NCBI RefSeq assembly: GCF_045037415.1
Contig: NZ_CP173438.1
Source: Escherichia coli
Lineage (GTDB): Bacteria; Pseudomonadota; Gammaproteobacteria; Enterobacterales; Enterobacteriaceae
Length of the DNA: 64,000 nt
Strand: one strand, 5' to 3'
The position numbers and the translations under genes were made by a program. Shown here one piece after another: positions 25,390 through 26,594 of the stretch. Each line of letters begins with the position of its first letter. Position 1 is the first letter of the stretch. Below the pieces are notes generated by a model, which was not told the origin of the DNA, did not search any database, and saw only the letters and a list, made by a program, of their open reading frames with translations.

Positions 25390-25652
25390 AAAACCTACAA
25401 ATTGTAATTTTTGTATCCTATAGGCTTTGCATTTTCACGGCTAGCAATAAAGTCAAAAAATGAGAAATAATTGATCTTAAAAAACTTAAAACAGGCTAAC
25501 AAATCAGCAGTTACACTTGTCATGCCCTGCTAGTGAGAGGATCTTATCACTTTCGATATTGATGCAATCAGGTGCCGCGATAGAGGAAGCTTGGTCAGGT
25601 AATGGTGCCAACTTACTGATTTAGTGTATGATGGTGTTTTTGAGGTGCTCCA

Positions 25653-25928
25653 GTGGCTTCTGTTTCTATCAGCTGTCCCTCCTGTTCAGCTACTGACGGG
25701 GTGGTGCGTAACGGCAAAAGCACCGCCGGACATCAGCGCTATCTCTGCTCTCACTGCCGTAAAACATGGCAACTGCAGTTCACTTACACCGCTTCTCAAC
25801 CCGGTACGCACCAGAAAATCATTGATATGGCCATGAATGGCGTCGGATGTCGTGCCAGTGCACGCATTATGGGCGTTGGCCTCAACACGGTTTTACGTCA
25901 CTTAAAAAACTCAGGCCGCAGTCGGTAA
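25653..25928 (+). CDS. insA: IS1 InsA
   Basis: 91-aa [45 protein letters not shown]... matches recalled InsA. Confidence 0.9.
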
Positions 25929-26083
25929 CCTCGCGCATACAGCCGGGCAGTGACGTCATCGTCTGCGCGGAAATGGACGAACAGTGGGGCTATGTCGGGG
26001 CTAAATCGCGCCAGCGCTGACTGTTTTACGCGTATGACAGGCTCCGGAAGACGGTTGTTGCGCACGTATTCGGTGAACGCACT

Positions 26084-26350
26084 ATGGCGACGCTGGGGCG
26101 TCTTATGAGCCTGCTGTCACCCTTTGACGTGGTGATATGGATGACGGATGGCTGGCCGCTGTATGAATCACGCCTGAAGGGAAAGCTGCACGTTATCAGC
26201 AAGCGTTACACTCAGCGCATTGAGCGACATAACCTGAATCTGAGACTACATCTGGCAAGGCTGGGCAGGAAGTCACTGTCGTTCTCAAAATCGGTGGAGC
26301 TGCATGACAAGGTCATCGGGCATTATCTGAACATAAAACACTATCAGTAA
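26084..26350 (+). CDS. insB: IS1 InsB reading frame (C-terminal part from first ATG; the functional product InsAB' arises by -1 frameshift from insA)
   Basis: ORF ...[36 protein letters not shown]... matches recalled InsB. Confidence 0.8.
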
Positions 26351-26366
26351 GTTGGAGTCATTACCA

Positions 26367-26594
26367 CTATTTTAATGGATTGTTAATCTTTGCATATTCA
26401 AACGGGCTGATACATTGTTCTCTGTTCGCATCCAGAAAATCTGCCCACCACTGTAGCATAAGTCGACGTTCTTCCAGATGTTCGGCTTTATGGATATACG
26501 CAGCACGTACACCATTACGCTCCTGATGGCTCATCTGACGTTCAGCCGCTTTATCTCGTGCTGTTCTGGTCTCAATACTTCCATGCCGTTGCAA
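26367..26594 (-). pseudogene. C-terminal remnant of a second P4-type integrase, truncated at the IS1 boundary
   Basis: ...NGVRAAYIHKAEHLEERRLMLQWWADFLD... parallels the C-terminus of the intact integrase (...IRGTYNHAQYLDGRREMMQWYADYID...). Confidence 0.65.

Follow-up and report, generated by a model that had tools for sequence, protein, structure and literature searches.

An inactive IS1 between stubs of two recombinase genes as a probable recombination joint in a mosaic selC island of Escherichia coli

Introduction

How did an IS1 without a target duplication come to lie between remnants of two unrelated recombinase genes, a serine recombinase on its left and a tyrosine integrase on its right? 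This question is raised by a genomic island in the window, i.e., the whole stretch of 64,000 nucleotides analysed here, which covers the Escherichia coli chromosome around selC, with yicJ and yicI to the right of the tRNA-Sec gene. The island runs leftwards from selC, and a 100% identical island in strain 219 ends at setC, about 46 kb away. Counted away from selC, the order is integrase, TPR protein, phosphoethanolamine transferase, tia, the stub of a second integrase, IS1, RelB-like gene, hsdM, hsdS, hsdR, KwaA/KwaB, RhuM and MobI' (Table 1). Three aspects of the joint were of interest: the state of the IS1 and its borders, the origin of the DNA on either side of it, and the recurrence of its two junctions in other genomes.

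Table 1: Features at the IS1 joint and in its surroundings, with positions in the window and strand.
Feature	Position	Strand	Remarks
MobI'	15404-15790	+	N-terminally shortened
Defence block	15586-25580	-	about 10 kb; by homology from a mnmE-targeting MobI island
RhuM (PDC-S05)	15848-16897	-	in defence block
KwaB	16918-17760	-	Kiwa; PADLOC, E 7e-14
KwaA	17760-18314	-	Kiwa; PADLOC, E 9e-16
hsdR	18314-21550	-	type I R-M
hsdS	21550-22836	-	type I R-M
hsdM	22836-24815	-	type I R-M
RelB-like gene	24883-25380	-	right part of defence block
Serine recombinase stub	25530-25580	-	last 17 codons (SRHLIASISKVIRSSH*), resolvase-type; right end of MGIVchHai6-like fragment
17-bp orphan	25581-25597	.	TAGAGGAAGCTTGGTCA; between recombinase stub and IS1
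Left 9-bp flank	25589-25597		gcttggtca; without duplicate on the right
IS1 copy	25598-26365	+	768 bp, structurally complete, both inverted repeats
insA	25653-25928	+	frame intact
A6C frameshift motif of IS1	25904-25910		present
insB frame of IS1	through to 26350		interrupted by TGA at 26018-26020
Right 9-bp flank	26366-26374		actatttta; native integrase 3' sequence, stop codon at 26367-26369
3' stub of pheV-type P4-family tyrosine integrase	26367-26546	-	about 60 codons, catalytic Tyr region only
Non-integrase start of 75-aa ORF	26547-26594	-	chance read-through, in conserved tia upstream region (26547-26762)
tia	26763/26772-27518	+	recurrent module with stub
Phosphoethanolamine transferase	27693-29195	+	recurrent module with stub
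TPR protein	29560-30633	-	between phosphoethanolamine transferase and intact integrase
Intact selC-type P4 integrase	31036-32226	-	Pfam domains
tRNA-Sec (selC)	32525-32619	-	Rfam

Results

Setting of the island

Rfam as well as promoter and terminator scans of the region returned nothing besides tRNA-Sec. Two further parts of the window differ from strain 219. The IS110-family element ISEc45 is present in tandem (11187-12320 and 12734-13867), where strain 219 has one copy, and the duplication corresponds to a repeated 1.5-kb unit inside an interrupted IS66-family element. Between yicI and yicH lies a 7.2-kb cluster (36645-43900) which is absent from strain 219 and codes for a PRD/PTS regulator, PTS EIIA and EIIC, two class II aldolases, a ROK kinase and a D-lyxose isomerase.

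The IS1 copy and its borders

A preceding sequence-only reading of this DNA had described the IS1 as complete. This holds for its structure, including terminal inverted repeats that match at 20 of 23 positions, but not for its coding capacity: a nonsense codon (TGG to TGA) at IS1 position 423 interrupts insB, and it is private to the lineage of the window when compared with the other IS1 copies examined at the same site. The Pfam families of IS1 match InsA (E 5e-30) and the C-terminal part of InsB (E 4e-47), and PGAP annotates a 100% identical copy in the island of strain 219 as a pseudogene ('programmed frameshift; internal stop'). By its length and its imperfect inverted repeats of about 23 bp the element is a member of the IS1 family by descent, whereas the TGA in insB leaves it without an InsAB' transposase; it is thus an inactive member. 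It is also the only IS1 in the window, so that no Tn9-like composite of two IS1 bracketing a cargo is present there.

The same reading had noticed that the 9-bp flanks differ on the two sides and had attributed the present borders to a rearrangement and not to a simple insertion, and both statements were borne out. The flanks are identical at 4/9 positions, and the 9-bp target duplication of a simple IS1 insertion is missing. That a simple insertion took place and its duplication has since decayed by point mutation is almost certainly wrong. The four matching positions which might be quoted for it are at chance level, while the flanking DNA is 99.5-100% conserved among genomes. Moreover, a GC-rich terminator hairpin, native to the 3' end of the integrase, stands before the right 9-mer in IS1-free relatives; in the window IS1 has taken its place, and the left flank is without it. 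Because the right 9-mer is native to the integrase and its hairpin neighbour is absent on the left, a decayed duplication is refuted.

The integrase stub and the module to which it belongs

The 75-aa ORF immediately right of IS1 (26367-26594, minus strand) had been taken for the last 75 codons of a P4-type integrase, a claim that would have fallen if the ORF were unrelated to integrases on proper alignment. A genuine integrase end is indeed present, as in tblastn the intact 420-aa integrase aligned to it with residues 358-420 (95% identity, E 1e-34), but only about 60 codons are derived from it: nucleotide homology ends at 26543-26546, and the first 15 or so codons of the ORF are unrelated DNA. 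The best intact relative is the pheV integrase, not the selC type, with 99.4% identity over 178 nt of DNA. The stub corresponds to residues ~361-420 of this 420-aa parent, the catalytic domain of which spans residues 209-383; no Pfam match to the 75-aa ORF was obtained, which is uninformative for so short a stub that keeps only the last ~23 residues of this domain. In an identical island PGAP labels it 'integrase, missing N-terminus'. It belongs to the P4-type tyrosine integrases by homology but lacks their set of arm-binding, central and catalytic (R-H-R-Y) domains, and is a remnant, not a functional integrase. In the intact integrase of the window all P4-type domains were found by Pfam, and its 41% identity with the parent of the stub agrees with the paralogy previously asserted for the two. 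The expectation that an intact second integrase with its att repeat would be met at selC was not confirmed, since the closest intact relative is of the pheV type, and since the selC 3' end and tRNA-Phe/attL repeats, sought across the window as traces of an adjacent tRNA or att repeat of the stub, gave only chance matches of at most 11-16 nt.

IS1 abuts the stub at the stop-codon end, at a distance of 1 bp, and the approximately 360 missing 5' codons were lost on the opposite side. The breakpoint there, followed by AGCCGCTTTATCTCGTGC, is common to strain 439, AR_0119 (pheU) and SMS-3-5 (leuX), and strains 439 and AR_0119 are without IS1 at this place. Because modules free of IS1, at pheU, leuX and other places, have this 5' breakpoint (26543-26546) as well, the truncation of the integrase is not the work of IS1, and the IS1-mediated deletion previously held responsible for it has to be discarded.

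The stub and the tia upstream region occur together in 842 of the 5426 complete genomes, and a module of stub, tia/Hra-like porin and phosphoethanolamine transferase directly adjoins different intact integrases at selC, pheU and leuX. The stub is part of this module and not of the R-M segment, because the R-M/IS1 junction also occurs with at least five other right partners without the stub. The seam at the stub considerably predates the present make-up of the island, and it moves from one tRNA locus to another together with the tia module.

Stubs with the identical breakpoint fall into two allele types, pheV/pheU-like and leuX-like (L003 5984-6164 and L004 5999-6182, as compared with 26366-26546 in the window), and the stub of AR_0119 contains an internal stop. 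The window and strain 439 agree completely in the tia upstream region (26550-26737), but their stubs are only ~72% identical. Compared with SMS-3-5, the DNA from the R-M block up to 26623, stub included, is 100% identical except for IS1 itself (95%), and beyond this point identity drops to 84% and lower. Such switches of identity would indicate homologous exchange or gene conversion via the stub. Variable defence cargo follows the 3' end of the stub in IS1-free relatives; when the stub of strain 439 and its left cargo were sought beside an intact integrase elsewhere, only matches of 81-88% were obtained, covering the stub plus ~150 bp.

About 100 bp past the phosphoethanolamine transferase, window positions 29342-29444 are 82.5% identical to the spacer between an IS1 and the pheV integrase in strain RM9467-C1, which PGAP annotates as a C-terminal remnant of the transferase. 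This hints that the pheV integrase type itself was formerly located beside the phosphoethanolamine transferase module.

Provenance of the defence block

What had been called the R-M segment is a multi-system defence block, with the Kiwa pair (16918-18314) directly downstream of hsdR. Its right-hand DNA (24883-25597) was found in 76 of the 5426 complete E. coli genomes, always with at least 99% identity, and in 75 of these 76 IS1 follows at the same base. The one exception, strain 1585m1, is IS1-free. There, the block is an island at the mnmE 3' end, between mnmE and tnaC, in the order integrase (389 aa), HTH, DUF927, HTH, MobI, RhuM, KwaB, KwaA, hsdRSM, RelB-like gene, recombinase and three small genes. 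Positions 16878-25580 of the window are 99.2% identical to 1585m1 and positions 15586-16884 are 88% identical; homology ends at 25580, within the recombinase gene, which in 1585m1 codes for a resolvase-type serine recombinase of 208 aa. Outside the R-M/IS1 junction, the 17-bp orphan between this point and IS1 was not found elsewhere in the material examined, and its presence implies one or more earlier events to the left of IS1.

Islands of the MGIVchHai6 family are mobilisable by IncC plasmids, and members of their trmE-specific group A mostly carry type I R-M, with rhuM located beside mobI (PMC7449626). The window shares mobI, the adjacent rhuM and the type I R-M cargo; the position at the trmE/mnmE 3' end together with int, xis, HTH and DUF927 is lacking in the window and present in 1585m1. 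The R-M segment, as judged from these homologies, is a fragment of a mnmE/trmE-targeting island of the MGIVchHai6 type and not a tRNA-targeting element. The integrase of such an island is a different one, and the P4-type stub does not derive from the R-M element.

These results bear on the proposal that two tRNA-targeting islands once stood in tandem at selC, the stub being the integrase of the R-M element and having been truncated when an IS1-mediated deletion fused the two. A tandem array would predict a stub that is oriented like the intact integrase and distal to the first cargo, as is the case, and the variable defence cargo beyond the stub in IS1-free relatives would suit it as well. However, IS1 is located at the stop-codon end with the truncation on the other side, where it is common to IS1-free loci, the R-M block comes from a mnmE-targeting island with another integrase, the R-M/IS1 junction exists without the stub, the parent of the stub is of the pheV integrase type and an att repeat is absent from the window, so we consider this proposal improbable. 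It is contradicted in what it says on IS1 and the R-M element; what would be left of it is an ancient tandem event from which the stub arose. What stands of the former view of separate elements joined by IS1-mediated deletion is the composite nature of the island, the two sides of which have independent histories; the tRNA-targeting origin of its mnmE-derived R-M part does not.

Junctions of IS1 in other genomes

The IS1/stub junction was counted strictly in 43 genomes; a looser count of 261 is inflated by the joining of nearby pieces. In a larger collection, IS1 was located at the same point in all ten distinct contexts of the RelB-like gene (10/10). The R-M/IS1 junction, constant in 75 genomes, was detected with at least six unrelated right partners, none of them with a 9-bp duplication: stub-tia (selC, leuX), scr (sucrose) genes, a Gp2-family gene, cytochrome b562-IS2-fos, fos directly, and BREX brxA.

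The interior of IS1 bears on how one left junction came to be combined with so many partners; 20 copies from 18 loci, not to be read as independent lineages, were tabulated for it. At IS1 positions 546-768 the stub-linked copies differ at 0-1 sites whatever their left flank (9/9), and those with other right partners at 4-17 sites (11/11). At positions 1-39 all R-M-linked copies are identical, and two sites differ in the three copies that have another left flank. Crossing-over inside IS1 is expected to leave each IS1 end following its own flank, and this block mosaic therefore favours homologous recombination between two IS1 copies. We estimate the probability at roughly two in three that the interval is a fossil recombination joint in a mosaic selC island, with a hybrid IS1 generated in this way.

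The main rival is an adjacent deletion mediated by the transposase, in which the R-M-attached IS1 transposed intramolecularly to a position 1 bp beyond the stop codon of the integrase, the intervening DNA was removed, and the left junction was retained while a new right junction without duplication was created. Adjacent deletions promoted by IS1 classically leave one junction constant and the opposite one with variable partners, and a constant left junction with six or more right partners matches this pattern; IS1 also prefers AT-rich targets, and actatttta is AT-rich. Nevertheless, pure transposition would not change the 3' third of IS1 along with the right partner, the partners are scattered over several chromosomal locations, selC and leuX among them, and the present copy cannot make transposase, though its nonsense mutation may be later. 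On balance adjacent deletion appears unlikely for the joint in the window, and recombination between IS1 copies is favoured. One IS1 3' type is common to four right-hand partners, the junctions of which may have arisen through transposase-mediated deletion or by other routes, and the mosaic interior of IS1 could also stem from later gene conversion and not from the joining event itself.

In the genomes compared, neither a parental IS1 with actatttta on both sides, beside the stub or an intact integrase, nor one with gcttggtca on both sides, beside the R-M block, was found. Two candidates were rejected. A chimeric query for the simple-insertion ancestor, composed of hairpin flank, actatttta and IS1 left end, had as its sole match among 5426 genomes two pieces 380 bp apart. 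A second one, for an intact integrase abutted by IS1, recovered about 305 genomes, all with 169 bp between IS1 and the pheV integrase; this spacer consists of a phosphoethanolamine-transferase remnant and the hairpin, and the adjoining IS1 is a different, unrelated variant.

Several loci with the same IS1 site carry additional structures, and two of them, L021 and Iso00225, are direct examples of recombination at this IS1. Beside the fos genes a 66-bp remnant of an IS1 right end was detected (L018/L020, 11766-11831, reverse-complement coordinates). Locus L021 equals L020 minus the DNA between IS1 and this remnant and looks as if recombination between the remnant and the full IS1 had deleted cytochrome b562 and IS2. 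Iso00225 and related strains contain TEM-1/IS26/TnAs3/catA1 between two IS1 copies, the outer flanks of which are those of the window. Resistance regions at this site in clinical and animal strains (L006 999-8772 in Iso00225, L007 and L008) comprise TEM-1, IS26, TnAs3, GNAT, catA1, aph(3')-Ia and mer, between two IS1 or beside IS26. In L022 (GCA_974493465.1, 1-6742) BREX genes (BrxA, BrxB, BrxC and a MmeI-like methylase) abut IS1 opposite the R-M block; BREX is carried by published yicC-specific relatives of MGIVchHai6, and L022 may be a hybrid of two islands related to this family.

Discussion

Assembly of the joint

If the joint arose by recombination between IS1 copies, one IS1 would have become attached to the defence block and another would have inserted 1 bp past the stop codon of the integrase stub, after which homologous recombination between the two would have left a hybrid IS1 without target duplication. 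In other genomes, the same IS1 would have linked the defence block with five or more further partners, and resistance regions bounded by IS1 would have entered at it. With both IS1 and the stub now non-functional, the role of the joint would be structural and historical only.

The joint is a case of ordinary mosaic island evolution, in which every component is of a known kind. RefSeq already lists its features as pseudogenes, the mechanisms are textbook ones, and its importance lies mostly in bookkeeping: the assembly route is traced for one widespread selC/leuX island of E. coli, the provenance of the R-M/Kiwa block is corrected to a fragment of an IncC-mobilisable trmE island, and IS1 is documented as a splice site that can be used repeatedly, in clinical strains also for resistance regions.

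Two linked and rather tentative ideas follow, namely that the stub serves as a homology anchor for the exchange of cargo, and that an IS1-tagged defence cassette is spreading among E. coli islands. Concerning the first, the tia-phosphoethanolamine transferase module could swap neighbouring cargo with islands that bear a related P4-type integrase, and the stub could be overwritten repeatedly through gene conversion from live integrase paralogues. If true, gene conversion would explain why two stub alleles share one breakpoint, and why a stub with 99.4% identity to an intact integrase stands beside a tia upstream region that matches a genome with a stub of only ~72% identity. Concerning the second, the cassette of type I R-M, Kiwa and RhuM, broken away from a mnmE island mobilisable by IncC, may be passing between unrelated E. 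coli islands with IS1 as portable homology.

Comparison with known systems

With known IS1 rearrangements, i.e., adjacent deletion, recombination between IS1 copies and Tn9-type structures, the joint shares the lack of a target duplication, one constant and one variable junction and a hybrid IS1, as well as the IS1-bounded catA1/TEM-1 regions found at this site in some genomes. The window copy differs in the nonsense codon of its insB and in being the sole IS1 of the window, while the mechanism corresponds to textbook cases.

Like PAI tia of ETEC H10407, the island of the window is inserted at selC and combines a P4-type integrase with tia, and the order of integrase, sulfatase-like phosphoethanolamine transferase and tia is that of SE-PAI at pheV (PMC7545054). 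Unlike PAI tia, it lacks leoCBA, none being annotated in the identical island, whereas strain 439 has leoCBA beside tia; the defence block linked to IS1 takes the place of its distal part.

In common with the MGIVchHai6 family (Rivard et al., 2020; PMC7449626), mobI stands beside rhuM in the window and type I R-M is carried as cargo. In contrast to members of this family, only a fragment of about 10 kb is present, without integrase, xis and DUF927 and with a shortened MobI, and it lies within a selC island and breaks off at the serine recombinase gene.

Partial recombinase and transposase genes at the seams between modules are likewise found in tRNA islands assembled stepwise, such as SHI-2 at selC (reviewed in PMC7545054). 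As distinct from SHI-2-like islands, the stub seam of the window predates the present composition of its island and moves with the tia module.
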